A stretch of 64,000 nucleotides of DNA. Source: an uncultured Spirochaetota bacterium. GTDB taxonomy: Bacteria; Spirochaetota; Spirochaetia; SZUA-6; Fen-1364. Where the stretch lies: the NCBI GenBank assembly GCA_963734545.1, contig CAVTHO010000007.1, forward strand, positions 320,001 through 384,000, in the 5' to 3' direction. A program made the position numbers and the translations under genes. Of the stretch, positions 1 to 48,950 are shown piece by piece (within the stretch, counting starts at the first letter, position 1; each line of letters opens with the position of its first letter). The notes under the pieces were generated by a model. The model had not been told where the DNA came from, searched no databases, and worked only from the letters and a program-made list of their open reading frames with translations.

Positions 1-3000
1 CCTTCCGACCTGTCGAAGATTTCATATCGGTTCAATGCAAAATCTTCGAGCGCGGCGCTGCCCACCGGCCTCATTTTTCAAAGCATCCCCACGGAAGTCC
101 GGTTCATGGTTCTTGTGGACCGCAATCTCACAGGCACGAACAGGTTCAGGAATTTCTTCCCCTTCGAGGACGCAAGCACGGATCCTGATGGTCTCCTGTA
201 CGGCCCGAAAAGGGATTCGCTGACTGGCAGCCTTCCGTTCGATATCTTCTACCAGTTCCTGTCACCTGTCTCGGACATGACCCTCGAGGCAAACATTGTC
301 CCCGGATCCGTCAGCGTGCAGGTCAACGGAACGTCCGAATCCCGTATTGAAGTGGATCCGGTCTCGGGGCGCCTTACCATACTTGCCGAAGTTCTTCCCA
401 CGGACCGTATCGTCGTCACGTACAGCAAAGTCGAGCAGGGAGTTGCAGGCGGGGACATCCTGTTCGCGTGGCGGGACAAGATCCCTCTTTCCGATTCGGT
501 GAACCTTTTCTTTTCAACCGGGATCCGGTGGAACGCCAATCCATGGACGTTCTCCCAGGAGGCCTATTCGAAGTCGGGGACCATCATCGCCACGGCAGGA
601 ATCGACGGAAAGGGCGAGAACCTGTCGTACTCCGCGGAGGCGGGGATCGCGTACACAAACCCTGATACCACGGGAATCCTCAGGCTGTTCGGCATGGAAG
701 GCAACTCCACTTCGATCGACCTTTCGGAGGAAAATGCTTTCCCCGCGAGCGCGCCCTATACCTCCCTCGTCACTGAAATACCCGGACTCACGCCGGCGAA
801 TGCCCGAGGCTTGCTCTATTACCGCGATTATCGCTCGTATGGAGCGTTTGGCTCCTCGACACTCAATACGATCGACTACACAGGCTCGACGTTGATTCCC
901 TATTCGAACGGCAATCGGATGGGTCCCTACAACGTGAAAGGAAGCAGTGGCAACCTCAATTCAGAGAGCCTCGTTCTGGATTACAGGCTCGCCAGTAACG
1001 AGTGGGTGGGCACGCAGCTTCCGATCTCGCCGGGGTCCGACGCGGATCTTTCAGGTGCCCGGGCAATCACGATCCGGTTGCGGGCGCTGAACATGTCGGG
1101 CAGCAGCGTGAACGTCTCCCTCCAGATAGGCAGTGTCTCGGAGGACCTCGACGGTTCAGGCGTGCTCAAGGCTGAGACATCCTCGACACAGACGGGATTC
1201 TCATTTGTCGATCAGTCCCATGCAGGGATAACGCTCAAGGTCGGCGCAGGCCCCAAGCTGGAAGGCAACAGCAGGCTGGACTCTGAGGACCGAAACGGGA
1301 ACACCATCCTCGACCTGGAGGACGCGACCCGGGTACTGACCGCGGCGTCTTCTTCGTTCCCTATTGCTTCCGGGTCACTGAGCTCAACCTGGGCACCCTT
1401 CACGCTGCAATTGAATGACGCCGACAGGCAGAAACTCCTCCAGGCGCGCGGCGTGCGAGTGATCATCCAGGAATCGGGCGGAGGCACGGCCACGGGCCAG
1501 ATCCTTATCGATTCGATCACGATCCAGGGAACGCCGTTCTGGCCGCAGACCGCTGCCGTGGACCGCCCCAATGTCCACGTGCAGGAAGTTTCTGAGAATT
1601 TGGTCGGAACTGCCGCGGACCTGGAATCCAGGTACCCGGACAGCCTCAAGCGGTTCCATCCCGACGGAGAGCCGAACCAGGTGCTGGAGACAAGCTGGGG
1701 ATCCCCTGCCGCCGTGACAGCGCCGTTCACCGTGCAGGGCTTCGTTCCGCAGGGCACGGGCGGAATCCAATACAACACCATCGTTTCGTATGTTCGCAGC
1801 AATACAGTGGGCGCGACGTACACGTTTTCTCTCCTGGATTCCCAGTCAACGCCGCGCGGCGTTTCCTGGTCCGTGGCCGTTTCCGACAATGTGTGGCACG
1901 AGATCAAGGTCTCCCGCAATGACGGCACGGTCCGCATGGACGGCACCGTCATTGGGAGCCCTCTCAGGTTCGATTCATCCTATGAAAACCTGGCTCAGCT
2001 TACCGTCGTGGTGTCGGGCGTCCCTGTCACCGACCCTCCGCCCGGGAGCGGTCTGCTCTACATTGACGAGATCTACTGTACGGACCCCCAGGGGAGCGTC
2101 GGTGTCGCTTTCGTCGGCAATCTTTCAGCCAAGTTCCCCGGCACCGTGCTCGCTGCCGGGAATGTTCCCCTGGTCTCGAATGTGGCGCTGCGCCAGGACG
2201 TATCCCTTGTGTCAGCGGGATTCGCGCCGCTCTATGGCATTCCTTCTCCTTCGGAAGATCTCTCATCGCGTACTCAGGCGGATGCGGACCTCCTCTTCGT
2301 GCGCACGAGCGTGGACGTCCGGCTGAGGGAGGCCGCGGGGTCATTCAGCGCATCGGGGGGCCACCGGGTGAAGATCCCGGCTGATTCCTTTCCCGTGACC
2401 GTGGTCGACGCCTTTTCTCTCAACTGGGCGGGCGGGTTCTCGCGGGAGAATATGCTCGTTCTCACCCCCGGTTCCTTCCTCACATTGTCCCTCGGTACGA
2501 CCGCCAACGCAGACCCGGATGAAAGCGTCGGCACGGGACTCCTCAACCAATCCTGGCAGGCGAGCATGGCGCTGAGTCCCTTTTCGCCCCTGACGGTCAA
2601 TTCCACCCTGTCATTCTCCCAGGCGGTATCCGGATACCGGCTCCCGCTCGAATGGTACGGCGAGCGATGGGCGAGGGAGGCGGCGCTTGTGGTCCCATGG
2701 TTCGGCGGCTCGGATGTTCTGCGCAGCGAGCAGCTCGGATTCAAGACCGGGATCCCCGCGGCCCCCTTCGGCTTCAGCCTCGAAGCGGAGGCGAACACGG
2801 CGAGGAAGGAGGACAGCACGCTGACCGGGCTCAGCCAGCAGAACGACCTGTCCCTCTCCGCGGCCCTCCTGCTGCGCCTTGCCCAGGGCGGGGCATCGGA
2901 CATGAGTCTGAGCCTTGCCTACAGGAGGTTCGTCTCCGTGACGACCTCTCCTGTGCCGGGGCCCCGATTCTCCGCGGAGGCAAATGAGTACTTCGACGTT

Positions 3001-3819
3001 CTCTCGTCGCAGGCATATCTGCTGACTGCACCGCCGTTCCAGGAGCTCCTCTCCAACAACTCCGACGGGGTGCTTGCCGCCTGGGAGTCTGCAGGCGCAA
3101 CCCAGGGAATCTACAGCCCCTCCGTGCTCCTCTCGTTCCAGCGCGGCTTCGGCGCGCGGCTCATCGACCTGGTGGTGCCTTCCACGGCCGAGGTCGCGGT
3201 CGGTCAGGACCTCAAGAAGATAGCGGACCTCTCCCAGACGACCATGTACGTGCGTCCCAAGATCGGAATGAGGGCAGTGAACCTTTTCGGGCAGCTGGGC
3301 GTGTATCCGCTGCTTCCGATGGTGCGTACCGATGAGTACAGCATCAGCATGAGCGGGTCAGTGGATGGAGGCCCCGGGCTTCCGACACGTCTCTCCACCA
3401 TCTCCGCCGAGGTGTTTGCCAGCCTGACGGGCACCGGAGACGGAACCCTCACCTTCGTGGAAACCTTTCGGAGAGACCAGGCCACCACCATCACCCTGTC
3501 CAACGACTCGCAGGTGCTTCTGGAGTGGACCACCCGTCCGGAGGGAGGAGTCATTCTGCCTCTCATTCCGAAGGACATCGGCAAGACAGGATACTTCGCG
3601 CACCGTGAAAGCGTCGATGCCACGGTCAGCTACAACGACACAGGTGCTTTCCACCCGTTTACTCTCGTGCTCGGACACTCGAGCTCGATCGTGTACGACG
3701 AGCACGGGTCCATCAAGGCGAGCCTCAATCTCGGCATGGACGTTGAAGACCTCGGCGGCGCGGGGATCGCCTGGCGCCTCGCCTTCCGCGCGGCGCTGGA
3801 GGCCAAATTGACGTTCTAG
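1..3819 (+). CDS. Very large predicted outer-membrane protein with SprA-like motifs, 5' truncated by the window edge
   Basis: Frame is open from base 1 to TAG at 3817-3819 (>1270 aa). Motifs NIVPGSVSVQVNG...VDPVSGRLTI, QIGSVSEDLDG and EGNSRLDSEDRNGNTILD; amphipathic beta-strand-rich C-terminal half; ends in Phe (AKLTF). CDS is secure, the SprA link is inference. Confidence 0.75.
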   Translation, partial: PSDLSKISYRFNAKSSSAALPTGLIFQSIPTEVRFMVLVDRNLTGTNRFRNFFPFEDASTDPDGLLYGPKRDSLTGSLPFDIFYQFLSPVSDMTLEANIVPGSVSVQVNGTSESRIEVDPVSGRLTILAEVLPTDRIVVTYSKVEQGVAGGDILFAWRDKIPLSDSVNLFFSTGIRWNANPWTFSQEAYSKSGTIIATAGIDGKGENLSYSAEAGIAYTNPDTTGILRLFGMEGNSTSIDLSEENAFPASAPYTSLVTEIPGLTPANARGLLYYRDYRSYGAFGSSTLNTIDYTGSTLIPYSNGNRMGPYNVKGSSGNLNSESLVLDYRLASNEWVGTQLPISPGSDADLSGARAITIRLRALNMSGSSVNVSLQIGSVSEDLDGSGVLKAETSSTQTGFSFVDQSHAGITLKVGAGPKLEGNSRLDSEDRNGNTILDLEDATRVLTAASSSFPIASGSLSSTWAPFTLQLNDADRQKLLQARGVRVIIQESGGGTATGQILIDSITIQGTPFWPQTAAVDRPNVHVQEVSENLVGTAADLESRYPDSLKRFHPDGEPNQVLETSWGSPAAVTAPFTVQGFVPQGTGGIQYNTIVSYVRSNTVGATYTFSLLDSQSTPRGVSWSVAVSDNVWHEIKVSRNDGTVRMDGTVIGSPLRFDSSYENLAQLTVVVSGVPVTDPPPGSGLLYIDEIYCTDPQGSVGVAFVGNLSAKFPGTVLAAGNVPLVSNVALRQDVSLVSAGFAPLYGIPSPSEDLSSRTQADADLLFVRTSVDVRLREAAGSFSASGGHRVKIPADSFPVTVVDAFSLNWAGGFSRENMLVLTPGSFLTLSLGTTANADPDESVGTGLLNQSWQASMALSPFSPLTVNSTLSFSQAVSGYRLPLEWYGERWAREAALVVPWFGGSDVLRSEQLGFKTGIPAAPFGFSLEAEANTARKEDSTLTGLSQQNDLSLSAALLLRLAQGGASDMSLSLAYRRFVSVTTSPVPGPRFSAEANEYFDVLSSQAYLLTAPPFQELLSNNSDGVLAAWESAGATQGIYSPSVLLSFQRGFGARLIDLVVPSTAEVAVGQDLKKIADLSQTTMYVRPKIGMRAVNLFGQLGVYPLLPMVRTDEYSISMSGSVDGGPGLPTRLSTISAEVFASLTGTGDGTLTFVETFRRDQATTITLSNDSQVLLEWTTRPEGGVILPLIPKDIGKTGYFAHRESVDATVSYNDTGAFHPFTLVLGHSSSIVYDEHGSIKASLNLGMDVEDLGGAGIAWRLAFRAALEAKLTF

Positions 3820-3820
3820 G

Positions 3821-3918
3821 GCGCCGCGGTATTCCGCGGATTAAGGGCATTGTGGTACACCACGGATTTCCAGCACCGCGGTATTCCGCGGATTTAGCGC
3901 ATCGCGGCACTCCGCGGA
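3821..3918. repeat. Four degenerate 26-bp tandem copies of the CCGCGG-TAYW-CCGCGG hairpin repeat
   Basis: Units start at 3821, 3847, 3873 and 3899, e.g. GCGCCGCGGTATTCCGCGGATT, right after the stop codon. Confidence 0.9.
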
Positions 3919-3956
3919 CCCGGTATGCCGCGATAGCTTTCTGGGGAAGCGGGAGA

Positions 3957-3983
3957 TATAATATTCACGGGTTTTCAAGGAGG
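3957..3983 (+). promoter_or_regulatory. -10 box and ribosome-binding site
   Basis: TATAAT at 3957-3962; AAGGAGG at 3977-3983, 5 nt before ATG 3989. Confidence 0.55.
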
Positions 3984-3988
3984 TCTCC

Positions 3989-5322
3989 ATGCCTGCAGTT
4001 CTCAGACGTTGTGCGGTCATTCTGGTCCTTTGCGGTTTCGCAGTCGGACCGGCCTTCTCCCAGGAAACGCCTCCCGCCGACAGCCTCGGGTTCAAAATGT
4101 CCATGGGCATCGGTATTCAGAACTTTCACGGCCCGGTAGAGCCGGGCACGTTTTCATCGATCGGGCTCGCGCCGGATATCTCATTCGGTAAATTCGGGAT
4201 CGGCCTGGACCTGACGATCAACTACAACACGGAAAACGGCTCGCTCTATATCCGGAGGGCCGACTGGGTCGTCAACAGCTTTCAGAATTTCCTGGAGGTG
4301 TATCTCCCCAAGATCGCGTACATCCGATACGGCGTGAAGGGCGATCCTTTGTTCCTGAAGCTCGGCTCTTTCGCGGATGCGACCCTCGGCGATGGTTTCA
4401 TCATGGGAAACTACAATAACATGCTGTTCATGCCCGGACCAGCGCCACTTCGGTCTGCAGGCGGATCTGGATGGAAGACTTTTCAACGCGCCCTTCTTCG
4501 GCTTCGAATCTGTCATCGGAAATCTCGCCCGGATGGACGTGATGGGCGGGCGCTTGTATGTGCGGCCCCTTGCCGGTACCGGACCTGCCGGTTCTGAACA
4601 ACCTGGAAGTCGGTTTCACCGCAGCGATGGACACCGACCCTTTCTTCGGCACCATGTCTGTCGGCAATCCTTCCCCGATCGGCGTGATGGGCGGCGATAT
4701 TCGCGTCCCCATCGTCGACATCAAGGACGCGTTCTCTCTGCTCGCGTTCACCGATGTCGCCACCATCCAGACCAAGAGCTGGGGCGGCATGGTAGGGGTG
4801 AGCGGCAGGATCATCAGCATCTTCACGTACGGTCTCCAGCTGCGCGCGCTCGGTGAGGACTTCATCCCCGACTACTTCGGTCCCACGTACGACCTTCTGC
4901 GGGACCAGCAGTACCTCATCGTGCGGACCGGAGGATTCTCACCGGCCATGCTGGGGTGGCTGGCAAGCGTGGGCACGTCCTTCCTTGGGGACACGATTGT
5001 GTTCAGAGTCACCCTCGATGGCCCGTTCGCCCCGAGCCCCTTCACCAATCGCCTTCTGAGATACCCTCACCTGCGTGGTATATTCACAATCGCGGAGGGG
5101 GTCGTGCCGGGGATTTCATTCGATTTCAGCTACGACAAGAAAGCCCTCGCGACGCTCCCTGACCTGGTCAGCGCAGAAGATGCCGCCATTCAGGCGCAGC
5201 TCAACTTCAGGACGGGCCCCGCGGTCATATCCTTCCTCTACAAGATCGTATTCGACCCGACCCAATCCCCGCACCCGTGGCGCGTCACTTCCGGGCTGCA
5301 GAGCTCGATTGCGCTCTTCTAG
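3989..5322 (+). CDS. Exported predicted beta-barrel protein, paralogue of the C-terminal part of the next gene; two apparent frameshifts (~4435, ~4580)
   Basis: ORF pieces 3989-4597, 4377-4856 and 4558-5322 join into one protein. Signal peptide (…GPAFS-QE); C-terminal Phe (SSIALF). Confidence 0.8.
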
Positions 5323-5337
5323 GAAACGGAGGACAGT

Positions 5338-7545
5338 ATGAGGATCAGAGCCACTCTCGCGGTACTGGCAGCCCTCCTGGCGCTGCCGGGCCTGCTTTTT
5401 GCGCAGTCGGCACCTGCGGCGGCAAAGCCGCCGGCCATATCCGTGACCCTCGCCTATCACGAAGACAACAGCGGCACGTTCGACGTCAAGGACGGGAAGG
5501 GCGCATCCGTCACCATGCAGGACGGGGACGACATGCAGCTCGGCTGGACCGTGGTCACCGGCAAGGGAGACCTGGCCGAGCTGAAACTGAACCATACGGG
5601 CACGATCATCAAGATCGCCCAGAACACCAATTTCACTCTCACGCAATTGCGCTCAGAGACGGGAGGCCAGGATGTGTTCAGCCTGGCCTTCGGAAAAGTC
5701 CGTACGGTTGCCGGCAGGGCGTCCGGCAAGGACCAGTACCAGATCAGGACCCAGTCGGCGGTGTGCGGTGTGCGCGGTTCCGACATCGTGTTCGAGTACC
5801 AGGAAGGTGCTTTCGCCCGGCTCTTCACCCTCGAAGGGACGGGCTGGATCCAGAACGCCGCGGGAAACGCGATCGACGTGGCGCAGGGACTGTTCGCGGA
5901 CGCGCTGGGCGCCGCATTCACCGCGGTGCAGATCGCTCCGGACGTGCTCGGCGGTCTGGTCAGCGAGATGAAGTTCAACAGGCTGGATGTGAACGAAACC
6001 ATGGCCGTCAACAAGGCTTACCAGGAAACGCTCGGGACCCCGGCAACGGAGCCGGCACCGGGCCCGACCACGCCCCCGGCGCCGAAGACCAACTCGGCCC
6101 TGGACAACTTCATGACGGCGCTGCGCGACATCATGGGCCTCGAGATCGGCTCCGTCACCATTGGCGGCACCACGTGGGCAAAGGTGGTGCTGCAGCCGAC
6201 ATTCAAGACGGGCAATCTGAAGGCCGCGCTCTATCTGCCCCTCATCTACCACGACGACATGTTCAATCCGAGCGACTACTACAGGCCGGCGGGCAACAGG
6301 GAGTGGAGCTTCGGAACGGATCAACCGAATACCATCGCCGGCGTCGAGGACTTTGCCGTGGACGTCCTTCTCAAGATCAAGTACATCGAGTGGGGACGGC
6401 AGAGAGATCCCTTCTTCTTCAAGGTAGGAAACCTCAACGACATCACCATCGGGCACGGCCTGATCATGCGTGATTTCGCCAACGACGCCGACTTCCCCTC
6501 GGTGCGCCGCATCGGCGTGAATCTCGGCCTGGACCTCGGCGGCTTCGGAGTGGAGGCGATGGTCAACGACGCGGCAGATCCCGAGGTCTTCGGCGGCAGG
6601 ATGTACATCCGTCCGATTCCGGGCGTCAGGGCGGCTCTCGGCTTCTCGACTCTTGTGGACATCAATCCCGCCCGGGACTTCATCGATATTCCCGCCGGCG
6701 CTGTCGGTCCGGTCCCGGCGGGAAGTCCCATCTTCATCAGTCCGGGCATCGACCTTGACCTGCCGTTTGTGGAGAGTGATCCTTTCAGCCTGGTGGCTTT
6801 TGCAGACGGAGCGCTCATGCTGCCGTACTTCCGCTCCTCCCCGAGCATCGGCCTCACGGGCGGCACGGTGATCAATTCGGGGTTTGCCTCCGACGCGGTC
6901 TATGACAAGTCGGCTGCCATGCCCTTCAAGAACTGGGGATTCGCCACGGGGCTGTTTGGAAACCTGATCATCCGCGACTTGACCTGGCGGCTGGAGTTCC
7001 GTGACTACACCGGCGTATTCGTCCCGCAGTTCTACAGCTCCGGCTATGAGCGGCAGCGGAACACGCTCGTGCACAATGTGCTCGCCTACCTGCACGACCC
7101 GGCTGACCCGGTCTGGAATACCCAGAATATGGGCATCTTCGGCGAAGGCGGCATCTCGCTGGACCGGCTCTTCAGCCTCAAGCTCAGCTACTTCTGGCCC
7201 TGGGACAGGAACTCGGCGGGCGATTTCACATTCCTGAATGACGATTTCGCCGTGAAGTTCATCCTGCAGAAGGGCGTCATCCCTGTGGTCAACATCTGGG
7301 GATCCATCTCGTACGAGAGGACGAACTTCGTCCGTTCGATCCAGCACGGTGTGAATCTGTTCGATGCAAACACGGTGGTGAGCACATCGATCAATTACCC
7401 CGTGACGGATAATCTCGACGTGACGCTGCTGTACACCACCACGGCGCAGCGGGACTCGTCGGGCAACCTGGTCTATGCGAGCGCGGGAGACCTGCTGCCG
7501 AAGCTGGACACGTCGCTCTCCATCCAGATGCAGGTCCACCTCTAG
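5338..7545 (+). CDS. FecR-domain protein fused through a Pro/Thr linker to a predicted beta-barrel
   Basis: Signal peptide; FecR-type motif IRTQSAVCGVRGS; linker PATEPAPGPTTPPAP; GGAGG RBS. Confidence 0.85.
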   Translation: MRIRATLAVLAALLALPGLLFAQSAPAAAKPPAISVTLAYHEDNSGTFDVKDGKGASVTMQDGDDMQLGWTVVTGKGDLAELKLNHTGTIIKIAQNTNFTLTQLRSETGGQDVFSLAFGKVRTVAGRASGKDQYQIRTQSAVCGVRGSDIVFEYQEGAFARLFTLEGTGWIQNAAGNAIDVAQGLFADALGAAFTAVQIAPDVLGGLVSEMKFNRLDVNETMAVNKAYQETLGTPATEPAPGPTTPPAPKTNSALDNFMTALRDIMGLEIGSVTIGGTTWAKVVLQPTFKTGNLKAALYLPLIYHDDMFNPSDYYRPAGNREWSFGTDQPNTIAGVEDFAVDVLLKIKYIEWGRQRDPFFFKVGNLNDITIGHGLIMRDFANDADFPSVRRIGVNLGLDLGGFGVEAMVNDAADPEVFGGRMYIRPIPGVRAALGFSTLVDINPARDFIDIPAGAVGPVPAGSPIFISPGIDLDLPFVESDPFSLVAFADGALMLPYFRSSPSIGLTGGTVINSGFASDAVYDKSAAMPFKNWGFATGLFGNLIIRDLTWRLEFRDYTGVFVPQFYSSGYERQRNTLVHNVLAYLHDPADPVWNTQNMGIFGEGGISLDRLFSLKLSYFWPWDRNSAGDFTFLNDDFAVKFILQKGVIPVVNIWGSISYERTNFVRSIQHGVNLFDANTVVSTSINYPVTDNLDVTLLYTTTAQRDSSGNLVYASAGDLLPKLDTSLSIQMQVHL

Positions 7546-7553
7546 GCGGGCGC

Positions 7554-9248
7554 ATGCCAGTCAACACCCCTCAGCCCCGGAGGATCCGGATCCTCCGGGA
7601 CGAGGTCTCCCGAAAGATAGCGGCCGGCGAGGTGATCGACCGGCCGTTTTCCATTGTGAGGGAGCTCCTCGACAATGCAATCGACGCGGGCAGCCGTGCC
7701 GTCGACGTCCACCTGGAGGCGGGCGGACTCTCACGGGTGCGTGTCGTGGACGACGGAGCGGGCATGCCTCCGGATGACCTTGCGCTCTGCTGGCAGCCGC
7801 ACGCGACCTCGAAGATCGAAACGGAAGACGACCTGCTGCGCGTGTCCAGCCTCGGTTTCCGGGGGGAGGCGCTTTCCAGCATCGCGGTCTGCAGCCGGCT
7901 CGAGGTGGTGAGCTGTCCGGGAGGGGATGAGCCGGCGCACCGCCTGGAGGTCCGAGGCGGCAGACAGGTGCGCATGGAAGCCTGCCAGGGCCGGAAGGGG
8001 ACCGTGGTCGATGTGACCGAGCTCTTCTACAATTACCCCGCCCGGAAGAAATTCCTGCGCAGCGTTTCGGCCGAGTCCGGTCTCTGCAGGGCCATGTTCA
8101 TCGACAGGGCCGTGGCCCACCCGGGAATCGCGTTTCGCCTGGTCATCGACAATGAAATGAAGCTTTCCCTTCCCGTGGCGGAGACGGTCGACAGGATCGG
8201 GCTCGCCTACGCACAGCTCCTCGATTCGCGGATGCTGGGGCATGCGCGCGTGGACGGAGACGGTTTCAGCGTGAGGCTCGTCGCAGGCCGGCCGGAGCTG
8301 CGTCGCAGGGACCGGAGGCTTCTGCAGTGTTTTGTCAACGGGAGGCGGGTGTCGGAGTTTTCCCTCCTGCAAGCCGCCGAATACGGCTACGCGGGCTACG
8401 TGCCCGGCGGCTGGCATCCGGTGGCGTTTGTGTTCGTGGATGTGGATCCCGGGCTCATCGACTTCAACATCCACCCGGCCAAGAAAGAAGTCAGGTTCCG
8501 CAATCTTCCTGAGGTGCACAAGGCGGTCGTCGAAGCGGCCCGCATTCTGCTTGCGCCCGAGCCGGGGATGCCTGCCACGGGCGGCACGCCTTCGCGTTCC
8601 CCGTACCCTGCCGCGCAGCCGATCCGCGCCGCACAGGGGTTTTCGCTGCCTGTATCGCGTAATGCTGCGCCCGCGCCGATGCCGCAGGAAGACGGCATCA
8701 GGTTCCTCGGACAGGTTTTCGGCGTCTTTCTGGTCTTCGAGCTACCCGGCCGGCTCCTGGTTCTGGACCAGCACGCGGCGCACGAGCGGATCATTTTCGA
8801 GCGCCTCAGCGCGCGCGCGCCCGCGATGCAGGAAATGCTCTTCCCCCTCTGCTTTGACGTGTCGGAGGAGGAGGAAGCGCGCATTGTTGGCGCCGCGCAG
8901 GAGCTCGAAGAAATGGGAATCGCGGTCAGGCGCGCGGGCGCGCGCGCGTTCGAGCTGACGGCGCTCTCCGCGGACTTCCAGGCGCTGGCTGAAGAGCGGC
9001 TCGTAGAGCTCGTGCGCGGCGCGGGCGGGGAGCAGTGGCAGCACGCGTTCCGCGCCATGGCGGCCTGCAAGCTTGCCCTCAGGGAGGGAGACCGCGTGGA
9101 TCCGGTCACCGCTCATGAGCTGTGCGCGCAGGCCCTGCGGCTGCCCGTGCCGCGCTGCCCGCACGGCCGTCCCATATGGCACGAGCTGTCCGAGGAGACC
9201 CTTCTCCGCCTGGTCGACAGGCCGGCGCGGGAGAAGCCTCGAGACTGA
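7554..9248 (+). CDS. mutL: DNA mismatch repair endonuclease MutL
   Basis: KIAAGEVIDRP, ELLDNAIDAG, GFRGEALSSI; endonuclease motifs DQHAAHER and CPHGRP. Confidence 0.97.
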   Translation: MPVNTPQPRRIRILRDEVSRKIAAGEVIDRPFSIVRELLDNAIDAGSRAVDVHLEAGGLSRVRVVDDGAGMPPDDLALCWQPHATSKIETEDDLLRVSSLGFRGEALSSIAVCSRLEVVSCPGGDEPAHRLEVRGGRQVRMEACQGRKGTVVDVTELFYNYPARKKFLRSVSAESGLCRAMFIDRAVAHPGIAFRLVIDNEMKLSLPVAETVDRIGLAYAQLLDSRMLGHARVDGDGFSVRLVAGRPELRRRDRRLLQCFVNGRRVSEFSLLQAAEYGYAGYVPGGWHPVAFVFVDVDPGLIDFNIHPAKKEVRFRNLPEVHKAVVEAARILLAPEPGMPATGGTPSRSPYPAAQPIRAAQGFSLPVSRNAAPAPMPQEDGIRFLGQVFGVFLVFELPGRLLVLDQHAAHERIIFERLSARAPAMQEMLFPLCFDVSEEEEARIVGAAQELEEMGIAVRRAGARAFELTALSADFQALAEERLVELVRGAGGEQWQHAFRAMAACKLALREGDRVDPVTAHELCAQALRLPVPRCPHGRPIWHELSEETLLRLVDRPAREKPRD

Positions 9249-9284
9249 CCCTGCGGCCGGCCCCGCTCTCTCCGGCTGGTTCCT

Positions 9285-11192
9285 CTACTTGAGCTGATCC
9301 AGTAGTTTCTGCGCCTCGTCCTTGACGTCCGGCTTGGGATTCTTGGCGAGCAGCCGTGTGAGAAGGTCCTTTGCGTCCCTGTTGTTGCCCTCTTTCACGA
9401 ATATCCGGGCAAGCTTGATGTACACGTCCTGGTTGGTGGGATCCTTTGACAGCACGTTCAGAAACGCCCTTTTCGCCTCCGGGAGCTGGCCGGTTTCAGC
9501 GTATGCGAGGGCGAGATTGTACTCGGTGACCTTCGAATCTGGCTGGATGGACAAGGCCTTCGAGAGGTGCGTGATGCTGTCCTGGTACTGCTGCTGGTGC
9601 AGATAGACATTGCCCAGATTGTTCTGCACTTCGTAGGACTCGGGAAGAACCTCCTGCGCCGTGAGGAGGAGGGGAAGCGCCTTGTCCGGCATGCCGCGGC
9701 TGTCGTACATCCCTCCGAGATTGATCAATGCAGGCGCGAACCTCGGGTCCTTCTCCACCGCAATGCCGTAGTATTTCAGCGCGTCATCCACGTTGCCCAG
9801 TTTTTCGTTCGCCAGCCCGAGGATGTAGTTGCCGGATGATGAATTGGGGTCGCGGTCCACCGCTTTCTGCGCGAAGGCGAGGGCCTCCCGCGGCTTTCCC
9901 AGCTTTATTTTCACTGATGCCATGTTGTAGTTGGCCACGGTGCTGTCAGGTTCCTGCGCAAGGGCACGGGTGAATGTGCTCTCCGCGCCGGCGAAATCGC
10001 CGCGCGCCATGTAGGTGGCGCCCAGCTCGCGCATGTACCCGGCGTTGTCCGGCGCGTACTGCGCGGCGAGCTTGAACTCATCCAGCGCGCCGGCAATGTC
10101 GCCCTTGTCGCGGAGGAGGTAGCCGACCATGTAATGGGAGTCGGCGTCGTCTTTTTTCGTCGCGATGGCGGATTTGAAAGCGTCCACTGCCCGCGCCTTG
10201 TCACCGAGCTGCACAAGACTCATGCCGCGGTTGAAATGAGCACGGGTGAAATCGGGACGCAGCGCCACGCATCCCTCGAAAGATTTCTGGGCGTCCGAAA
10301 AAAGCCTGGCGCGATACTGCAGCTTGCCGAGCGCGTACAGGGCGTCCGCGTCGCTGGGATTGAGGCGCGCGGCGGCCTTGTATTCCCGCATGGCGTCCTC
10401 GGAGAGCTTGCGGCTGTCATAGATCTCTCCCAGCGTCTTGTGCGGGAGCCAATTGTCGGGATTCTTGTCGATGGCCTTCTTGGAGAGATCGACCGCTTTC
10501 TGCACGCCTGCCGAATCCGAAGGATTCTCCCTCCACCAGGAAAGCCCTGCAAACGCAAGAGCGTCCGAGTTGTCGGGAGCCAGGGCAACGGCCTGCTCGA
10601 AGGTCTTCCGCGCCTCGTTATACCGGCCCGCATTGAAGGCGGCGGCGCCCTTTTCCATCAGGTCATGGATCTTTTTCTGCAGCTCCTTTTCCTTCGTGGA
10701 GGCGCCTTCGGGCGGCGGCGTGGTCGTCTGCTGAACCACGATCTTCTGCTGCTGGTTTTTCAGCGTGTCAGTGAGTTGCGCGAGCCCTGCCTTGAGCTGG
10801 TCCTGCTGCGCTTTCAGCGCGGCAAGCTCGTTCTGTTTTGCCGCTTCCGCCGCGGCCTTTTTCCGTGCCAGGACATCGTCCAGGGCCGCTTTCACTCTCG
10901 GATCATCGATGCTGAGCTCGTTCAAGACCTTGAGCGCTTCCTCGAACTCGCCCTTTCCGGCGTAATAATCGGCACGCTTCAGGCCCTCAACCACGTTTGG
11001 TCCCGCGGGGGCGGAAACGGGAGGGCGGGTGACCAGGTAAGTCCCGACTGCCACAAGCAGGCAGATTGCCACGATGAGGCCGACCAGCAGAGGCGTGGAG
11101 AGTCTTCGGCCGGATTGGGTGTCCCGTCTCGGTGCGCGCGGCGCGGGGGAGCGGCCGGTGGACCGGCCTTTGTCGTGCGAGGGTGTCTGCAT
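9285..11192 (-). CDS. Membrane-anchored protein with many TPR repeats
   Basis: One N-terminal TM helix (LLVGLIVAICLLVAVGTYLV), a coiled coil, then >10 TPR-type repeats. Confidence 0.9.
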   Translation of the reverse strand: MQTPSHDKGRSTGRSPAPRAPRRDTQSGRRLSTPLLVGLIVAICLLVAVGTYLVTRPPVSAPAGPNVVEGLKRADYYAGKGEFEEALKVLNELSIDDPRVKAALDDVLARKKAAAEAAKQNELAALKAQQDQLKAGLAQLTDTLKNQQQKIVVQQTTTPPPEGASTKEKELQKKIHDLMEKGAAAFNAGRYNEARKTFEQAVALAPDNSDALAFAGLSWWRENPSDSAGVQKAVDLSKKAIDKNPDNWLPHKTLGEIYDSRKLSEDAMREYKAAARLNPSDADALYALGKLQYRARLFSDAQKSFEGCVALRPDFTRAHFNRGMSLVQLGDKARAVDAFKSAIATKKDDADSHYMVGYLLRDKGDIAGALDEFKLAAQYAPDNAGYMRELGATYMARGDFAGAESTFTRALAQEPDSTVANYNMASVKIKLGKPREALAFAQKAVDRDPNSSSGNYILGLANEKLGNVDDALKYYGIAVEKDPRFAPALINLGGMYDSRGMPDKALPLLLTAQEVLPESYEVQNNLGNVYLHQQQYQDSITHLSKALSIQPDSKVTEYNLALAYAETGQLPEAKRAFLNVLSKDPTNQDVYIKLARIFVKEGNNRDAKDLLTRLLAKNPKPDVKDEAQKLLDQLK

Positions 11193-11197
11193 GTGTC

Positions 11198-11887
11198 TCA
11201 GTCCTTGATATCGACGTCCACCGGATCGGTCCGGCCCTTGATTGAATCCACTGACAGGTTTTTCGTATCTTCCCCGGCATTGTTCAGGCTGTTCAGCACT
11301 TCGTTCATCAGCGCCTGCTGCCTGGCAAGGGCGGCCTGCCGGGCCTGCTCCTGATCATCCTGGGCCTGACGGAGGAGGGCGATCAGCTTCTCGATGCTCG
11401 GCCTTTGCGGATCCTGGGGGAGGAGCTGGAGAAAAAGGGTGTAGTCGGCAACGGCACCGCTGTAATTCTGGAGCTGCAGGCGAGCCTGGGCCCGGTTGAG
11501 GTAGCCTTTTGCCAGATCCTTGTTGGCCGCAAGAGCGCTGTTGTACATTTCCTCCGCGAAGGCGAACTCCTTGCGGCTGAAGAAGTCATTTCCCATGTTG
11601 TAATAGAAAAGGTCCTTGAAGGAGGTGGCGACGTTCAATCCCCTCTTGAGGATATCGATTGCCTTCTGCGGGTCTCCGAGCTGCTGGTAGATGATCCCGA
11701 GGTAGAGGTAGATCTTCTCGTTTGAAGGATCTTCATTCAGGGCGCTTTCGAGGAGCGGCTGGGCGTCCCGGGGCTTGTTCTGGACGAATAGCGCCTCGCC
11801 CTTGTCGAAAAAAGCGGAAACGGCGAAGACTGCCCCGCAGGAAAAGAGAAGAAAACCGGCCAGGGTCAATCGCTTTGTCATCTGCAT
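11198..11887 (-). CDS. Exported TPR protein
   Basis: Signal peptide, TPR repeats, C-terminal coiled coil; TATACT -10 box at 11898-11903. Confidence 0.88.
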   Translation of the reverse strand: MQMTKRLTLAGFLLFSCGAVFAVSAFFDKGEALFVQNKPRDAQPLLESALNEDPSNEKIYLYLGIIYQQLGDPQKAIDILKRGLNVATSFKDLFYYNMGNDFFSRKEFAFAEEMYNSALAANKDLAKGYLNRAQARLQLQNYSGAVADYTLFLQLLPQDPQRPSIEKLIALLRQAQDDQEQARQAALARQQALMNEVLNSLNNAGEDTKNLSVDSIKGRTDPVDVDIKD

Positions 11888-12033
11888 GTCCCCTTAGAGT
11901 ATACCGCGCCGCAGGGCACGCGTCGCGCGCGATGATGCACGGAATGCCCTCGTTTCTATCGTCGGTACGGGGTGGGAGAGCTTGACCGTTTTCAACGGGC
12001 GGACAGGCTCCGGGAGGGCCAGGTGCAGGCTTG

Positions 12034-12312
12034 CTACTGCTCCTGGGCGCGCAGATGATCCTGCGCTGTGGCCTGCATGCGCTCATGGATGAAGTCGACC
12101 GTGTCGGATATCTTCTGGATCTTCTCGCCTGCGTCATCCGCGATCGAAATGCCGAATGCTGCCTCGATTTCGTAGACAATCTCGGCAACGTCCAGTGAAT
12201 CCAGGCCAAGGTCGAATTTGAGATGCTTGTCGGGACTCAATGATGCCCGCTCCATCGAGGTGTGTTTCGAGAGGATATCGATCAGTTTCTCCTGAATCTC
12301 AATTTTATCCAT
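12034..12312 (-). CDS. acpP: Acyl carrier protein
   Basis: DLGLDSLD phosphopantetheine attachment motif; acidic, 92 aa; GAGGAG RBS. Confidence 0.92.
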   Translation of the reverse strand: MDKIEIQEKLIDILSKHTSMERASLSPDKHLKFDLGLDSLDVAEIVYEIEAAFGISIADDAGEKIQKISDTVDFIHERMQATAQDHLRAQEQ

Positions 12313-12342
12313 AAACTGACTCCTCGACTCTGATCTTCTGCA

Positions 12343-12371
12343 TGTATATACGAGTTCCGCATCTTTGTCAA
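12343..12371 (-). promoter_or_regulatory. sigma70-like promoter of acpP
   Basis: Minus strand TTGACA-N17-TATACA. Confidence 0.55.
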
Positions 12372-12427: not shown

Positions 12428-13099
12428 ATGAGACTCCTCTGCATAGCCGACCATGTGGACCCGCTGATCTACAGCACGGGCCTCAAGACCCGGTACGGCA
12501 ATGTCGACCTGGTCTTGAGCGCGGGAGACCTCACGCTCGACTACTATGACTTCATCGTCAGCACGCTGAACAAGCCGCTGTACTTCGTGTACGGAAACCA
12601 TCACCTGGAAGGGCGGAATGAGGAAGGGATTGCAGCGGATCCCTTCGACAAGAACCGAAACTGCGAGCCGGGGACAGCCTCGGCATGCGGGGCGACATGC
12701 CTGGAGGGAAAAGTCGTGCGGAAGAAGGGGCTCATCCTGGCCGGACTGGGAGGGAGCATCTGGTACAATGGGGGAGAAAACCAGTACACCGACTTCACCA
12801 TGTTTCTCGTCATCCTGCGGATGGTGCCCCGCCTTCTCTGGCACAGGATCATGCACGGAAAGTTTCTGGATATCCTGGTCACCCATTCGCCTCCGTACGG
12901 GATAAATGACCTGCCCGATCCCTGTCACACGGGGTTTCGTGTCTTTCTCTGGTTCATGAGGACATTCAAGCCGAGCTACCTCGTGCACGGACACGTGCAT
13001 TTGTACGACAGGAACGCTGCCCGGGAGGCGCATTACGGAGCAACGACGATTATAAACGCGTATGACCACATCATGATCGATCTGGGGAACACAACATGA
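12428..13099 (+). CDS. Calcineurin-like metallophosphoesterase
   Basis: Motifs ADH, AGDL, GNH, THSPP, HGHVH; start moved to ATG 12428. Confidence 0.9.
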   Translation: MRLLCIADHVDPLIYSTGLKTRYGNVDLVLSAGDLTLDYYDFIVSTLNKPLYFVYGNHHLEGRNEEGIAADPFDKNRNCEPGTASACGATCLEGKVVRKKGLILAGLGGSIWYNGGENQYTDFTMFLVILRMVPRLLWHRIMHGKFLDILVTHSPPYGINDLPDPCHTGFRVFLWFMRTFKPSYLVHGHVHLYDRNAAREAHYGATTIINAYDHIMIDLGNTT

Positions 13100-14028
13100 G
13101 CGACCGAATGTACCAGACCCTTGCGCGCAATGACTTCAGCAAGCTGCGGACGCAGCAGTCCTTCAGGAAGATACTCTCCCTGCTCAAGGCGCAGAAGGAC
13201 GAAATGCTCTCCCTGGGGGACGTACGCTCTCTGCTGCGGCCCGATTCGGAGGTCTACCGGGGAATGCAGACCGTTGCCATCGCGAAGATCATTGGCAGCG
13301 AAGGGCGGTACAGGGATTTCGACAGGGCGTTCCTGCCCCGGCACGACAAGCTGATGGGCCGCTGGATGAGGGTGGACCTGGCGCACTACCAGAATGTCCC
13401 CCTGCCGCCGATACAGCTTTTCGAGATTGGCGGCGTGTACTTCGTGCGCGACGGCAATCACCGGGTGTCCGTGGCCAAGTCGCAGGGGGCGGAGTTCATC
13501 GACGCCGAGGTGATCTCCCTTTCATCGGAGATTTCTCTCTCCTCCCACATGACGCTGGAGGAGCTCAAGCGCGCCGTCATCGACTTCGAGAAGCGCAGGT
13601 TCTTCGAGACCACCCGGCTCGACATCCATCGGCCGGACTGCGTCCTGGAGTTCACCGAGGTAGGGCGCTACGATGAGCTGCTCTGTCACATCAGCGAGCA
13701 CAAGTGGTACATCAATCTCAAGAAGACCGAAGAGATCCCCTTCGAGCAGGCCGCGGTTTCCTGGTACGACCATGTGTACTTCCCGATCATCTCGATCCTG
13801 CGCGAGGCGAAGCTCCTCGCCGCCTGCCCGCAGGCCACGGAGGCGGACCTGTACGTGTTCATCGGCAAGCACTGGAGCGAGCTGAACAGGCGCTATGGAC
13901 CCCTCTTCACGCTGGAGGAGGCGGCCGAGGATTTCACGGTGAGCTCACAGAAGTCCGGTCTCCCGGGAAGGGCCCGCGTGATGTGGGGAAGGCTGAAAAG
14001 CGCGCTGCGGCTCCTCTTCCGCCGCTGA
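13096..14028 (+). CDS. ParB/Srx-like domain protein (DUF4032-type)
   Basis: PPIQLFEIGGVYFVRDGNHRVS ParB/Srx signature; ATGA overlap with the phosphoesterase gene. Confidence 0.8.
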   Translation: MSDRMYQTLARNDFSKLRTQQSFRKILSLLKAQKDEMLSLGDVRSLLRPDSEVYRGMQTVAIAKIIGSEGRYRDFDRAFLPRHDKLMGRWMRVDLAHYQNVPLPPIQLFEIGGVYFVRDGNHRVSVAKSQGAEFIDAEVISLSSEISLSSHMTLEELKRAVIDFEKRRFFETTRLDIHRPDCVLEFTEVGRYDELLCHISEHKWYINLKKTEEIPFEQAAVSWYDHVYFPIISILREAKLLAACPQATEADLYVFIGKHWSELNRRYGPLFTLEEAAEDFTVSSQKSGLPGRARVMWGRLKSALRLLFRR

Positions 14029-14032
14029 CGCG

Positions 14033-14407
14033 TCACCCTCCCTGGACGTAGGCCTCGTATTCCTTTTCCGTCAGCAGGTTCTGAAGCTCGTCCGGGTTTT
14101 TCATCTCGAGCACGATCAGCCAGCCTTCGCCGAGGGGATCCTTGTTGATGAGGGCGCAGCTTTCCTCCGAAGCGAGAACTGCATTCACCTGGGCAACGGT
14201 GCCCGAGACCGGGGCGTAGATCTCGCTCGAGGATTTCAGGGAATCCACCGTGCAGGCCACCTCTCCACGCTCGAGGCGCCGGCCCGGCGCGGGGAGCTCG
14301 ACATAGGCGATATCGCCCAGCTCCCGCTGAGCGAAATCCGAGATGCCGACCTTCGCGCGGCTGCCTTCTGTGAGCACCCAGGTATGGTCTTTCGTGTAGA
14401 ACAGCAT
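14033..14407 (-). CDS. gcvH: Glycine cleavage system H protein (lipoyl carrier)
   Basis: YTKDHTW, VGISDFAQRELGDI, lipoyl-Lys in VDSLKSSSEIYAPVSG, INKDPLGEGW. Confidence 0.93.
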   Translation of the reverse strand: MLFYTKDHTWVLTEGSRAKVGISDFAQRELGDIAYVELPAPGRRLERGEVACTVDSLKSSSEIYAPVSGTVAQVNAVLASEESCALINKDPLGEGWLIVLEMKNPDELQNLLTEKEYEAYVQGG

Positions 14408-14416
14408 GTGTCTGCC

Positions 14417-16900
14417 TCAGTCGAGCAGAGGATTGCCGCCGGAAGCGCCCCCCGGCTCTGAACCGGGACCTCCCCCGTCCAGCGGCTGGCCCGCCATGCC
14501 GCCTCCCCCCTGGAGGTCCGGATTGGCAAGCAGGGAGTTCTTCAGATTCTCCAGCGTCGAGGTCGCCTGGGTGGAATTGTATTCGTCCAGCTCGTCAAAG
14601 GTCTTCGGTTCCGTGCCGGCGAGGAAGACCTCGGTGATGGTTTTCTTGGTGTAGGCGGTCGGCAGGAGCCCGGAGGTCGCGCTGACCACCATGTCCACGA
14701 GCCCCGTTTCGGGCCGGGAAAACCTCTTGGGCGGCAGGTCCTTGTGTATTGCCTTCATGAATCTGGCCCAGGTGGGACCGGCGATGGCGGCTCCCGTCAG
14801 CGCGGTGCCGAGGGACCGGTTTCCCTGGTCGAACCCGTACCAGACAGCGGTGGTGACGTAGGGGGAGAAGCCGACGGTCCAGGCGTCCGACCAGTTCTGG
14901 GTGGTTCCCGTCTTGGCCGCAAAGGGCTGGCCCTTGTCGTTCCAGATGTCGAGCATGCCGCCGACGCCGCCGAGTGTCCCTTCCTTGATGGTGCTTTGCA
15001 GGATGCTCGTCATGATGTAGGCCGTCTGCCTGCTCATGATCTGCGCCGAATCGCCCTTCCTGCTCTCTTTGGCCAGGATCTCCTTTGCCGGCTCCAGGAT
15101 GATTTTTCCATTCCTGTCTTCTATGTACCGGATGGACACCGGCACGACCTCGCGGCCGCCCGTGGCGAAAACAGAGTACGCGCGCGCCATCTCGAGCGGG
15201 GAGACGGTGATGATCCCCAGGCCGAGGGGATAGTACCGCGGAAACCGGCGATCGATCTCCGCCGGGTCCGTGACACCCAGCATCCGGCTCGCTCTCTGGA
15301 TTGCCGCGTCGAACCCGATGCCGTCCAGGACCCTGAGGGAGGGCACATTCATGGATTCCGCCAGGGCGTCACGCAGCAGCACCCTGCCGTGCCATTGTCC
15401 CTTGTAGTTGAGGGGCTCGTAGAGTGTCCCGTCGGCGTTGGTGAACACCACGGGAGCATCCATGATCATCGTCGCGGGCGTGAATTTGCGGGAGTCGATG
15501 GCCGCCGAATAGTAGAGGGGCTTGAAAGCCGATCCCGGCTCGACCTCCGACTGCGTGGCCCGGTTGAACTGGTCCGCGCTGGAGAACTGCCGTCCTCCCA
15601 CCATGGCGAGGATGTATCCATTGGAGGGGTCGATGGAGACCAGCGCACCCTGCACCTGGGTCTTGCGCGTGACGGCGAGGCCCGAATCGATTCCCGAGGA
15701 CACGATGGCCTGCGCCTTCTGGAGGGAGAAAAGCGACGCGACCATCTCCACGACAGGCCCCATCTTCCTGGCATAGTCCCGCTTGGCGTTCCCGGTGGCG
15801 TTCCGGTTGCGGTACATCAGGTCATCGATGTCGAAGGAAAGCCCGAGCATGTCGATGAGCGGAAGGTATGACGCGTTGGAAGCCGCGATCTTGGCCCCGG
15901 AGCTGGAGAGATAGAGGGAGTTCACCTTGTCGATGTCTTCCGCCATTCTCTTGTCCGCTTCCCTCTGGTAGTCGAGGTTGAGCGTGGTGTGCACCACCAG
16001 GCCGTCGGTGAGATAGTTGTACGATCCGACCAGGAGGTCCTCCAGCTGGCCCCTGATGTACTCGCTGAAGTACGGTGCCTTGTCTTCCCTGTCGAGAAAC
16101 GCGCTGCTGTTGGACCGCGTATAGTCGTACTTTGTCCAATACTCGTCGAAGGAGTCGTCCGCCTCCTTCTTTGCCACGTAGCCCAGCTTGACCATCTGGT
16201 CGAGAATTTCCCGCTGGAGACGCCGCGCCCGCTGCGGGTTCTTGATGGGGGAGTTGACCGACGGGCTGGCAAGCTGGATGACGAGCATGGCGGATTCCGC
16301 GACCGTGTCCTCCTCGACGGGATGCTTGAAAAAGAACTTGCTGGCCGCCTGAACGCCCTGGGTCCCGGCCCCGAAGGGCATCTCATTGAGGTACATCTCC
16401 ATGATCTCTTGCTTGGTGTAGCGCCGCTCCATCTGGATGGCCCACCACAGCTCCACCAGCTTGCGCTTGATGGAAATGTCCGTCCTGTCCGCATAGAGCC
16501 TGCCGGCGAGCTGCTGGGTGATGGTGCTCGCGCCGGAGACGTATCGGCCCGTCATGATGTTGAAAAGCGCCCGGGTCAGACCACGGAGGCTGAACCCGTG
16601 GTGGGAATAGAAGTTCCTGTCCTCCCGGGTCAGCAGGGCGTCAACGAGGTGCTGGGGCACCTGGTCGATCGTGATCGGCTCCCGGCTCTGCTCGCCGAAG
16701 AACTGCGTAATCTCCCTGTCGTTGATGTCGAGTATCTTCGTGGGGAGGGCGGGCTGATGCTCGCCGAACTGCTCTTTCACGGAAATGTTGCGCGTGGCCG
16801 CCAGGGCGATGCCCAGTGTCACTCCCAGAAGAATGGCCACTGCAAAAGACACTATCAACAATGTCTCGAAGACCGTGTTCTTTTTCGGGTTCAGATGCAC
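14417..16900 (-). CDS. mrcA: Class A penicillin-binding protein (PBP1A family)
   Basis: TM anchor; transglycosylase motifs EDRNFYSHHG, GASTITQQ; transpeptidase motifs SAFK, SMN, KTG. Confidence 0.93.
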   Translation of the reverse strand: MHLNPKKNTVFETLLIVSFAVAILLGVTLGIALAATRNISVKEQFGEHQPALPTKILDINDREITQFFGEQSREPITIDQVPQHLVDALLTREDRNFYSHHGFSLRGLTRALFNIMTGRYVSGASTITQQLAGRLYADRTDISIKRKLVELWWAIQMERRYTKQEIMEMYLNEMPFGAGTQGVQAASKFFFKHPVEEDTVAESAMLVIQLASPSVNSPIKNPQRARRLQREILDQMVKLGYVAKKEADDSFDEYWTKYDYTRSNSSAFLDREDKAPYFSEYIRGQLEDLLVGSYNYLTDGLVVHTTLNLDYQREADKRMAEDIDKVNSLYLSSSGAKIAASNASYLPLIDMLGLSFDIDDLMYRNRNATGNAKRDYARKMGPVVEMVASLFSLQKAQAIVSSGIDSGLAVTRKTQVQGALVSIDPSNGYILAMVGGRQFSSADQFNRATQSEVEPGSAFKPLYYSAAIDSRKFTPATMIMDAPVVFTNADGTLYEPLNYKGQWHGRVLLRDALAESMNVPSLRVLDGIGFDAAIQRASRMLGVTDPAEIDRRFPRYYPLGLGIITVSPLEMARAYSVFATGGREVVPVSIRYIEDRNGKIILEPAKEILAKESRKGDSAQIMSRQTAYIMTSILQSTIKEGTLGGVGGMLDIWNDKGQPFAAKTGTTQNWSDAWTVGFSPYVTTAVWYGFDQGNRSLGTALTGAAIAGPTWARFMKAIHKDLPPKRFSRPETGLVDMVVSATSGLLPTAYTKKTITEVFLAGTEPKTFDELDEYNSTQATSTLENLKNSLLANPDLQGGGGMAGQPLDGGGPGSEPGGASGGNPLLD

Positions 16901-20654: not shown

Positions 20655-20664
20655 TCGCTTTTCG

Positions 20665-20694
20665 ATCCTATCCTTCCCGTGCGCCCGCTGTCAA
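20665..20694 (-). promoter_or_regulatory. Internal sigma70-like promoter ahead of mlaD
   Basis: Minus strand TTGACA-N18-TAGGAT. Confidence 0.45.
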
Positions 20695-21494: not shown

Positions 21495-21506
21495 GCCGCG
21501 CCGTCC

Positions 21507-33395: not shown

Positions 33396-33441
33396 GAATC
33401 CGCGGAGTACCGCGGCGCGAATCCGTGGAATACCGCGGCGC
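33396..33441. repeat. Two 23-bp copies of the same hairpin repeat in inverted orientation
   Basis: GAATCCGCGGAGTACCGCGGCGC and GAATCCGTGGAATACCGCGGCGC, downstream of TTGACA-N16-TACGAT (33361-33388). Confidence 0.9.
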
Positions 33442-40769: not shown

Positions 40770-40891
40770 GCTGCGGTGATAGTAGTTACGGCGCAGGAGG
40801 GTGTCAAGGATTTGGGCTCCGCCGTCTGAAAGGGACACGGAATACCGTGTCTGGCTTGACAAATGCGGAGGCCTCAAGGGACACTCTCTCG

Positions 40892-46695: not shown

Positions 46696-46705
46696 GATCC
46701 GGATC

Positions 46706-48926: not shown

Positions 48927-48950
48927 GAATCCGCGGAGTACCGCGGCGCG
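48927..48950. repeat. Single copy of the hairpin repeat just after a stop codon
   Basis: GAATCCGCGGAGTACCGCGGCGCG. Confidence 0.88.

Follow-up and report, generated by a model that had tools for sequence, protein, structure and literature searches.

The 64,000-nucleotide stretch analysed here (the window; positions 320,001 to 384,000 of contig CAVTHO010000007.1, assembly GCA_963734545.1, from an uncultured Spirochaetota bacterium) opens within the gene of a giant outer-membrane protein, which we propose to be a remote relative of SprA, the translocon of the T9SS (type IX secretion system). The C-terminal part of this gene occupies positions 1..3819 of the forward strand (1272 codons and a stop), its frame is open at the 5' end of the window, and its product ends in ...RAALEAKLTF; the G+C content across the gene, 0.59-0.63, is similar to that of the remaining window. 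The first residue of the window protein pairs with residue 367 of its closest relative, P0002 (84% identity), and about 366 N-terminal codons, those of the signal peptide included, are therefore located upstream of the window. The complete relatives count ~1,600-1,700 amino acids, and the full giant protein is estimated at ~1,640. By eye, the N-termini of the full-length relatives resemble signal peptides, after which comes a conserved block, P.PEAPTTIFSTKLGS, while the terminal Phe is invariant in the 36 relatives aligned (36/36) and forms, in the window copy (...LEAKLTF), a C-terminal signal of the outer-membrane protein type. The family thereby carries the Sec signal peptide and the C-terminal outer-membrane signal of SprA and its counterpart Sov.

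An earlier note on this DNA, made from the sequence alone, had described a frame of more than 1270 amino acids with a terminal Phe, three ordered motifs and a long β-strand-rich region, and our analysis recovers each of these features. The first motif block (292..381, + strand) consists of NIVPGSVSVQVNG at 292-330 followed by VDPVSGRLTI at 352-381, is located in an insert of the β-sandwich type and pairs with the SprA block I.EGSERVTVNG...DY.INY..G.VTF (hhalign confidence 8-9 of 9); it gives weak matches to phage tail proteins in the relatives and in the SprA proteins alike. The second, LQIGSVSEDLDG (1120..1155, + strand), pairs with the IDLGSISED of SprA, and the third, EGNSRLDSEDRNGNTILD (1261..1314, + strand), an acidic loop rich in Asp and Asn, pairs with G.PDTEDLNGNGVLD, both with an hhalign confidence of 9. 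The correspondences with SprA that the note had named hold, and all three blocks fall in alignment columns of confidence 8-9. Over the stretch equivalent to the third block, one relative (P0121) matches FG-GAP_3 weakly (E 0.0056), and the conserved acidic loop may be a calcium-binding loop carried by an extracellular insert. Further downstream, at 1855..1938 (+ strand), a non-membrane insert gives a weak laminin-G, or lectin-like jelly-roll, signal (PF02210, Laminin_G_2, E 0.11, below the cutoff) which is found at the equivalent spot in the relative P0013, and the family profile also matches neurexin; this insert is probably part of an extracellular cap. The remainder of the chain (2050..3816, + strand) is the strand-rich C-terminal barrel region, interrupted by two helical inserts and containing, according to the DSSP assignment of the AlphaFold2 model described below, ~25 long strands (model residues 611-1197, nucleotides ~2050-3810).

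The first lead towards SprA came from two full-length relatives whose N-terminal parts match weakly the model TIGR04189, 'T9SS outer membrane translocon Sov/SprA' (E 0.007-0.01, 13 bits). Such matches occur in 7 of 41 full-length relatives (13-27.7 bits), always N-terminal and collinear at profile positions ~82-258. A profile built from 36 full-length relatives (A1) was then compared with a set of 5.8 billion proteins and retained 99 of them at E<=1: 93 are members of the family and the six others carry PF14349, the Pfam SprA_N domain, with E values of 2.8e-9, 5.9e-9, 4.2e-6, 4e-3, 0.13 and 0.77. Two of these six bear the NCBI name 'cell surface protein SprA', and all six pass TIGR04189 with 429-943 bits for a cutoff of 200. 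A second, independent profile made from 20 distant members (A6) gave 24 matches, 23 to the family and one to a PF14349 protein of 2282 amino acids (E 2.5e-10). When A1 is compared directly by hhalign with A3, in which the six SprA proteins are aligned, the probability is 99.7% and the E value 5.6e-27 over 859 columns (A1 33-962, A3 153-1226); at a laxer alignment threshold this match is collinear from end to end over 1477 columns. It persists when only those columns are kept that the window covers (99.2%, E 1.6e-19, 606 columns), against 1.0% and 0.056 with the SprA alignment reversed as a control. The confidence is high around residues 100-300, 450-520, 700-750 and 790-900 of P0002. The significant match to a SprA profile that the earlier note had called for as a check is thus obtained by profile-to-profile comparison (E 5.6e-27) as well as by profile-to-sequence searches (E 2.8e-9 and 2.5e-10). 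In the ESM Atlas, 25 of the 30 nearest clusters belong to a set carrying PF14349, and one neighbouring cluster, of 1623 amino acids, has this domain annotated on 12% of its members; this annotation hints at a trace of the SprA link in the databases. At the profile level, the homology to SprA extends along the chain, and these comparisons of sequences point to a giant protein sharing its descent with SprA as a remote relative, outside the curated SprA family as its thresholds define it.

The predicted structure leads to the same protein. AlphaFold2 was given the C-terminal 1199 residues (window 220-3816) with an alignment of 59 rows, so that residue i of the model is residue i+73 of the window protein, and it returned a mean pLDDT of 86.0 and a pTM of 0.54. 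Four long strands at residues 79-147 precede the ~25 of the C-terminal region, and the middle of the model contains shorter strands and helices, consistent with β-sandwich inserts. The ~29 long strands of the modelled part are compatible with a barrel of the size of SprA but do not prove it, a total near 36 being reached by extrapolation only. When the model was compared with the PDB by Foldseek, the first four ranks were occupied by cryo-electron microscopy chains of SprA: 8gl8_A (E 2.2e-30), 8gl6_A (1.1e-27), 6h3i_A (4.5e-27) and 6h3j_A (6.2e-23), each with a probability of 1.00, with TM-scores by the query (TMq) of 0.43-0.45 and root-mean-square deviations of 14-16 Å. The fifth rank falls to E 4.2e-8 and TMq 0.09. 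Among the 92 matches at E<=0.001, most of those beyond SprA are lectin, carbohydrate-binding module, sialidase lectin or reelin-type domains, and these matches probably stem from the inserts. The SprA-type giant barrel fold is accordingly found for the 1199 residues modelled, and the only strong matches in the search are the SprA chains. The outcome that the earlier note had named as fatal to its proposal, namely neither a profile nor a structural match to SprA and no large barrel, did not occur. We therefore predict a very large barrel whose non-membrane inserts would hold the blocks conserved with SprA.

The giant protein belongs to a large family. Of the 8000 candidates scored when the 5.8 billion proteins were searched with the window protein, 83 are relatives at E<=0.001; no Pfam domain is precomputed for any of them, the names, where given, are all 'hypothetical protein', and the seven for which an organism is named are all from a 'Spirochaetia bacterium' (7/7). 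In an exhaustive HMMER search, a family query (A5, the N-terminal ~1190 residues, 21 rows derived from the loci described below and the row of the window) matched the representatives of 1193 clusters, formed at 50% identity, with E<=1e-3; the number is 889 for E<=1e-10 and 625 for E<=1e-30. Most of the best 150 of these 1193 have 1,500-1,720 amino acids, and the tail of the list probably includes true SprA proteins. In the source rows that carry a name, the family is called only 'hypothetical protein' or 'Uncharacterized protein'. With one genome per species (GTDB), 59 stretches fit two narrow peptide patterns and 38 of them encode a relative, which gives 37 loci, a lower bound on the range of the family because the patterns are narrow. 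By their record titles, all 37 are in Spirochaetota: metagenome-assembled genomes (MAGs) of Spirochaetia, Spirochaetales and Spirochaetaceae, Sediminispirochaeta sp. and the Olavius algarvensis spirochete endosymbiont. All the named proteins matched in the direct and profile searches likewise come from Spirochaetia or Spirochaetales MAGs, so that the spirochaetal host suspected from the sequence is now well established. Treponema, Borrelia, Leptospira and Brachyspira are not represented among the 37 loci, which, given the narrowness of the patterns, is no evidence of absence in these genera. The occurrence in Bacteroidota or in other lineages of the Fibrobacteres-Chlorobi-Bacteroidetes (FCB) group, which is characteristic of SprA and Sov, is not found among these 37 loci or these named proteins.

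The genes that follow the giant gene are conserved with it. After a spacer of ~170 nucleotides come the gene of a barrel of ~450 amino acids (neighbour 1), the gene of a second barrel preceded by a FecR domain (neighbour 2) and mutL. Among the 28 loci whose DNA downstream of the giant gene extends over 1.5 kb or more, 27 have both barrel genes in this order and 25 have mutL too; the order of the giant gene and the two barrel genes persists even in members with no more than 23-30% identity to the window protein. The sole exception is L036 (7428-14066), from the Olavius algarvensis endosymbiont, where mutL directly follows the giant gene without the barrel genes. When aligned with the spacers of four relatives, the spacer of the window displays a conserved promoter-like stretch (3919..3988, + strand) with a TATAAT at 3957-3962, not listed by a consensus promoter scan, and the ribosome-binding site AAGGAGG at 3977-3983; the downstream genes may thus have a transcription start of their own, separate from that of the giant gene. 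The same spacer contains two copies of an 18-base repeat (CGCGGTAYTCCGCGGATT and variants), absent from the aligned spacers of the four relatives. This repeat, which contains a palindrome, is dispersed over the window in 13 copies at <=3 mismatches, for 0.08 expected by chance, at 3825-3842, 3877-3894, 33397-33437, 48928-48945, 56078-56125, 63496-63621 (five copies, 27 bases apart) and 63691-63708. On the other side of the giant gene, two proteins are encoded divergently in 27 of the 37 loci, one of 309 amino acids that belongs to no known family and one with an Ion_trans domain; in L002 this pair is located at 8226-9962 on the minus strand, and the equivalent region of the genome studied here would be upstream of the window.

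Neighbour 1 (3989..5322, + strand, delimited by tblastn in three frames) is an outer-membrane barrel of the porin-like kind; it has a signal peptide and ends in ...SIALF. In the window, its gene is interrupted by frame changes at two places, near 4435 and around 4550-4580, and is distributed over frame 2 (3977-4435), frame 3 (4434-4580) and frame 1 (4549-5319), its orthologues being single open reading frames (ORFs) of 449-483 amino acids. Both changes occur at short C/G runs, which suggests either an assembly error or a pseudogene. Other genes are split as well. The gene of a GH57 / 4-alpha-glucanotransferase at 46673-48738 of the window extends over two overlapping frames, with the N-terminal and middle domains in the ORF 46673-48304 and the C-terminal domain in the ORF 48010-48738, possibly another frame error of this assembly. 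The giant gene of L002 (9953-15024) is divided into the ORFs 9953-12355 and 12571-15024, and L008, L013, L014, L021 and L030 likewise have no single full-length ORF for it, so that frame breaks are a common occurrence in these MAG assemblies.

The model of the neighbour 1 orthologue from L002 (AlphaFold2, 23-row alignment) is a barrel of ~20 strands (pLDDT 71.6, pTM 0.63) which matches by Foldseek generic barrels of 16-24 strands, such as MOMP (5ldv, E 2e-6), FimD and AlgE, with TMq <=0.36. Its candidacy as an equivalent of PorV, the carrier barrel of SprA, was considered and rejected: the FadL-type TodX comes no higher than rank 31 (TMq 0.19), no PorV chain is among the best 50 ranks, and the matches of a profile to PDB sequences were all unrelated (E>0.4). 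Thirteen of the 23 orthologues match weakly the NCBIfam model NF047543, 'ImpL63' (best E 3.9e-7), and in the ESM Atlas the protein is placed among uncharacterised Spirochaetota clusters. A structural neighbour in that atlas is a FecR-bearing cluster of 758 amino acids (TM-score 0.79 by the query and 0.49 by that row), the commonest phylum of which is Fidelibacterota, a lineage of the FCB group. Neighbour 2 (5338..7545, + strand) has 735 amino acids and is composed of a signal peptide, a FecR domain (residues 71-167; PF04773, E 4.6e-8), a linker rich in Pro and, at the C-terminus, a barrel that is a paralogue of neighbour 1 (25% identity, E 5e-23). The mutL gene (7554..9248, + strand, assigned by Pfam) is a synteny anchor behind the three outer-membrane protein genes, a part of the context and not of a machine.

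The remaining window is made up of envelope and housekeeping genes: besides mutL, those of PBP1, an M23 peptidase, two Mla-like ABC sets, LolCDE, FtsY, Rnf, ClpB and McsAB. The two Mla-like lipid ABC sets (MCE/MlaD, MlaE and ATPase) are separate, at 19525-22283 and 38307-40877, and together with the LolC/D/E-like set at 55600-59229 they indicate that the window encodes several systems for the trafficking of outer-membrane lipids and lipoproteins. The scans for tRNA genes and Rfam families in the window were empty.

The reading we favour, with some reserve as to function, is that the giant protein represents, in spirochaetes, a new branch of the SprA superfamily and is probably a protein-conducting channel of the outer membrane; its kinship is drawn from profile comparisons and a predicted model, and we infer from it both the translocon role and the kind of machine. 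Several observations weigh against this proposal. PF14349 has no match in the window protein, in 8 relatives (0/8), in 30 relatives (0/30) or in the full-length protein of L005, and TIGR04189 has no match in the window protein at E<=1, its scores in the relatives staying at or below 27.7 bits for a cutoff of 200; the NCBIfam scan of the window protein matched no family at all. A phmmer search of the PDB sequences with the window protein found nothing, and the hidden Markov model of A1 missed SprA in the same database, its best matches being unrelated (E 0.77-2.3). The giant protein is about 30% shorter than a standard SprA, and about 350 amino acids separate its family (~1,600-1,700) from the SprA proteins compared (1990-2537); the hhalign confidence is low over residues 1101-1400 of P0002. 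The structural superposition is moderate (TMq 0.43-0.45, 14-16 Å) and concerns the C-terminal 1199 residues only. Among the window ORFs scanned (20 with Pfam, 45 with NCBIfam at E<=1e-6 and 24 with Pfam at E<=1e-3), no T9SS component or C-terminal domain (CTD) of T9SS substrates was found, and neighbour 1 is not PorV-like. Finally, the transport function is a prediction by analogy with SprA.

This last point leaves some room for a SprA fold without protein export, in which the giant protein would serve as a large channel for uptake or else contribute to the structure or the biogenesis of the outer membrane in spirochaetes. Neither substrate nor motor nor carrier was identified in the data covered (the window and the flank of L002), the flanking genes concern the envelope and housekeeping (mutL, PBP1, M23 peptidase, the Mla-like and Lol ABC systems), the neighbouring barrels resemble general porins or exporters (MOMP, AlgE, ushers), and FecR domains are known from signalling linked to uptake, all of which would suit such a role. 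We nevertheless consider it unlikely, as those superfamily members that have been characterised are all secretion channels (PMC10994853), and as the blocks best conserved with SprA are in the non-membrane inserts and not in the barrel strands alone, which argues for a shared specific function and not merely a shared scaffold.

The giant protein could also be the SprA subunit of an otherwise canonical T9SS, with GldK/L/M/N, PorV, PorU, SprE and CTD substrates encoded elsewhere in the genome. The homology and the fold match would serve this explanation equally well, and the T9SS genes of Bacteroidota are described as scattered around the genome (PMC4793230), so that their absence near the giant gene in a 64-kb window says little. 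Yet the same article reports from a survey of 2,484 genomes that T9SS is found in Bacteroidetes only; the models of PorV/Q/U/Z, GldK/L/M/N, SprE/T, PorP/SprF and the CTD have no match in the window ORFs scanned, nor did any T9SS family match the nine conserved proteins that flank the giant gene in L002; the scores stay far below the cutoff of the SprA equivalog model, and the chain is shorter by about 30%; and none of the conserved neighbours is a known part of a T9SS. These observations make a canonical system improbable. As for a chance resemblance of short β-sandwich and acidic-loop motifs in an unrelated large surface protein, to which the phage tail matches of block 1 and the subthreshold curated models might point, it can be practically dismissed in view of the collinear alignment over 859-1477 columns (E 5.6e-27, for 0.056 with the reversed control) and of a fold search specific for SprA by >20 orders of magnitude in E value.

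The model we propose for this new branch of the SprA superfamily starts with the export of the giant protein by Sec and its insertion into the outer membrane by the BAM machinery. It would there form a wide water-filled channel, as in SprA, through which folded periplasmic proteins would pass to the cell surface. In these spirochaetes, the partners of the channel would be other than the described T9SS set, and the two neighbouring paralogous porin-like barrels, one of them equipped with a periplasmic FecR domain, would be the candidates. Taken one step further, and here only tentatively, the locus might belong to an undescribed outer-membrane secretion pathway of free-living and symbiotic Spirochaetales, consisting of a slimmed-down SprA-type channel which would work without GldKLMN and PorV but with two dedicated paralogous barrels, the FecR-barrel acting as a gate or coupling element in the periplasm and the plain one taking the part of a carrier or of a lateral gate.

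In the literature searched, which did not extend to supplementary files, no article was found that describes a spirochaetal homologue of SprA. In the articles consulted, SprA and type IX secretion are treated as confined to Bacteroidota and close allies (PMC4793230, PMC10994853, PMC7463736). The nearest item is a preprint on Brachyspira which notes a barrel of the PorV/PorQ family (10.1101/2025.01.03.631275), and the T9SS reported for Mixotricha is assigned to a Bacteroidales symbiont and not to a spirochaete (PMC12483993). The spirochaetal family is large, deeply conserved, encoded at a single locus and syntenic, and it suggests that the SprA fold is older and more widely spread than the T9SS described so far. 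It adds a concrete candidate for the means by which folded proteins cross the outer membrane of some spirochaetes and, if the proposal is true, a barrel-assisted SprA-type pathway would be a candidate route for the export of spirochaetal surface proteins. The family would also offer a natural minimal version with which to ask which parts of SprA are essential.

SprA is, to our knowledge, the largest single-chain barrel of any outer membrane. The known translocon is represented by SprA of Flavobacterium johnsoniae (PDB 6H3I, 6H3J, 8GL6, 8GL8) and Sov of Porphyromonas gingivalis, covered by TIGR04189 and PF14349. As depicted in PMC10994853 and PMC7463736, SprA is a capped, water-filled barrel of 36 strands with a lateral opening, by which the substrates exit in a folded state, bound to the carrier barrel PorV; the idle channel is shut by the Plug protein and the energy is provided by the GldLM motor. 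The spirochaetal giant protein resembles SprA and Sov by its collinear profile-level alignment over most of the length, the three motif blocks included, by its signal peptide and C-terminal Phe signal, by its giant strand-rich barrel and by its lectin-like or β-sandwich inserts. It differs from them by an identity of 16-19%, below the curated thresholds, by the lack in its family of the first ~148 residues of the SprA proteins compared and by many small insertions and deletions, by its presence in Spirochaetota rather than in Bacteroidota and the FCB group, and by its different conserved neighbours, with no T9SS partner seen in the window ORFs scanned. The sequences that the family profiles reached are the SprA proteins of other candidate phyla (P0116, from Latescibacterota, with 1990 amino acids; P0115-P0120; P0273), which are shorter than that of Flavobacterium and nearer in size to the giant-protein family, but which pass TIGR04189 with 429-943 bits whereas the spirochaetal family does not exceed 27.7 bits. 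LptD and the FimD/PapC ushers are likewise β-barrel outer-membrane proteins with a C-terminal aromatic signal; unlike what is observed with SprA, however, the giant protein matches LptD in Foldseek with E values of 5e-5 to 3e-4 only and TMq of 0.16-0.18, and has no sequence relationship with these barrels. The Leptospira protein ImpL63 (NF047543), which gives the weak matches to neighbour 1, is named as a protein of the cytoplasmic membrane, whereas neighbour 1 is predicted to be a barrel of ~20 strands with a signal peptide.

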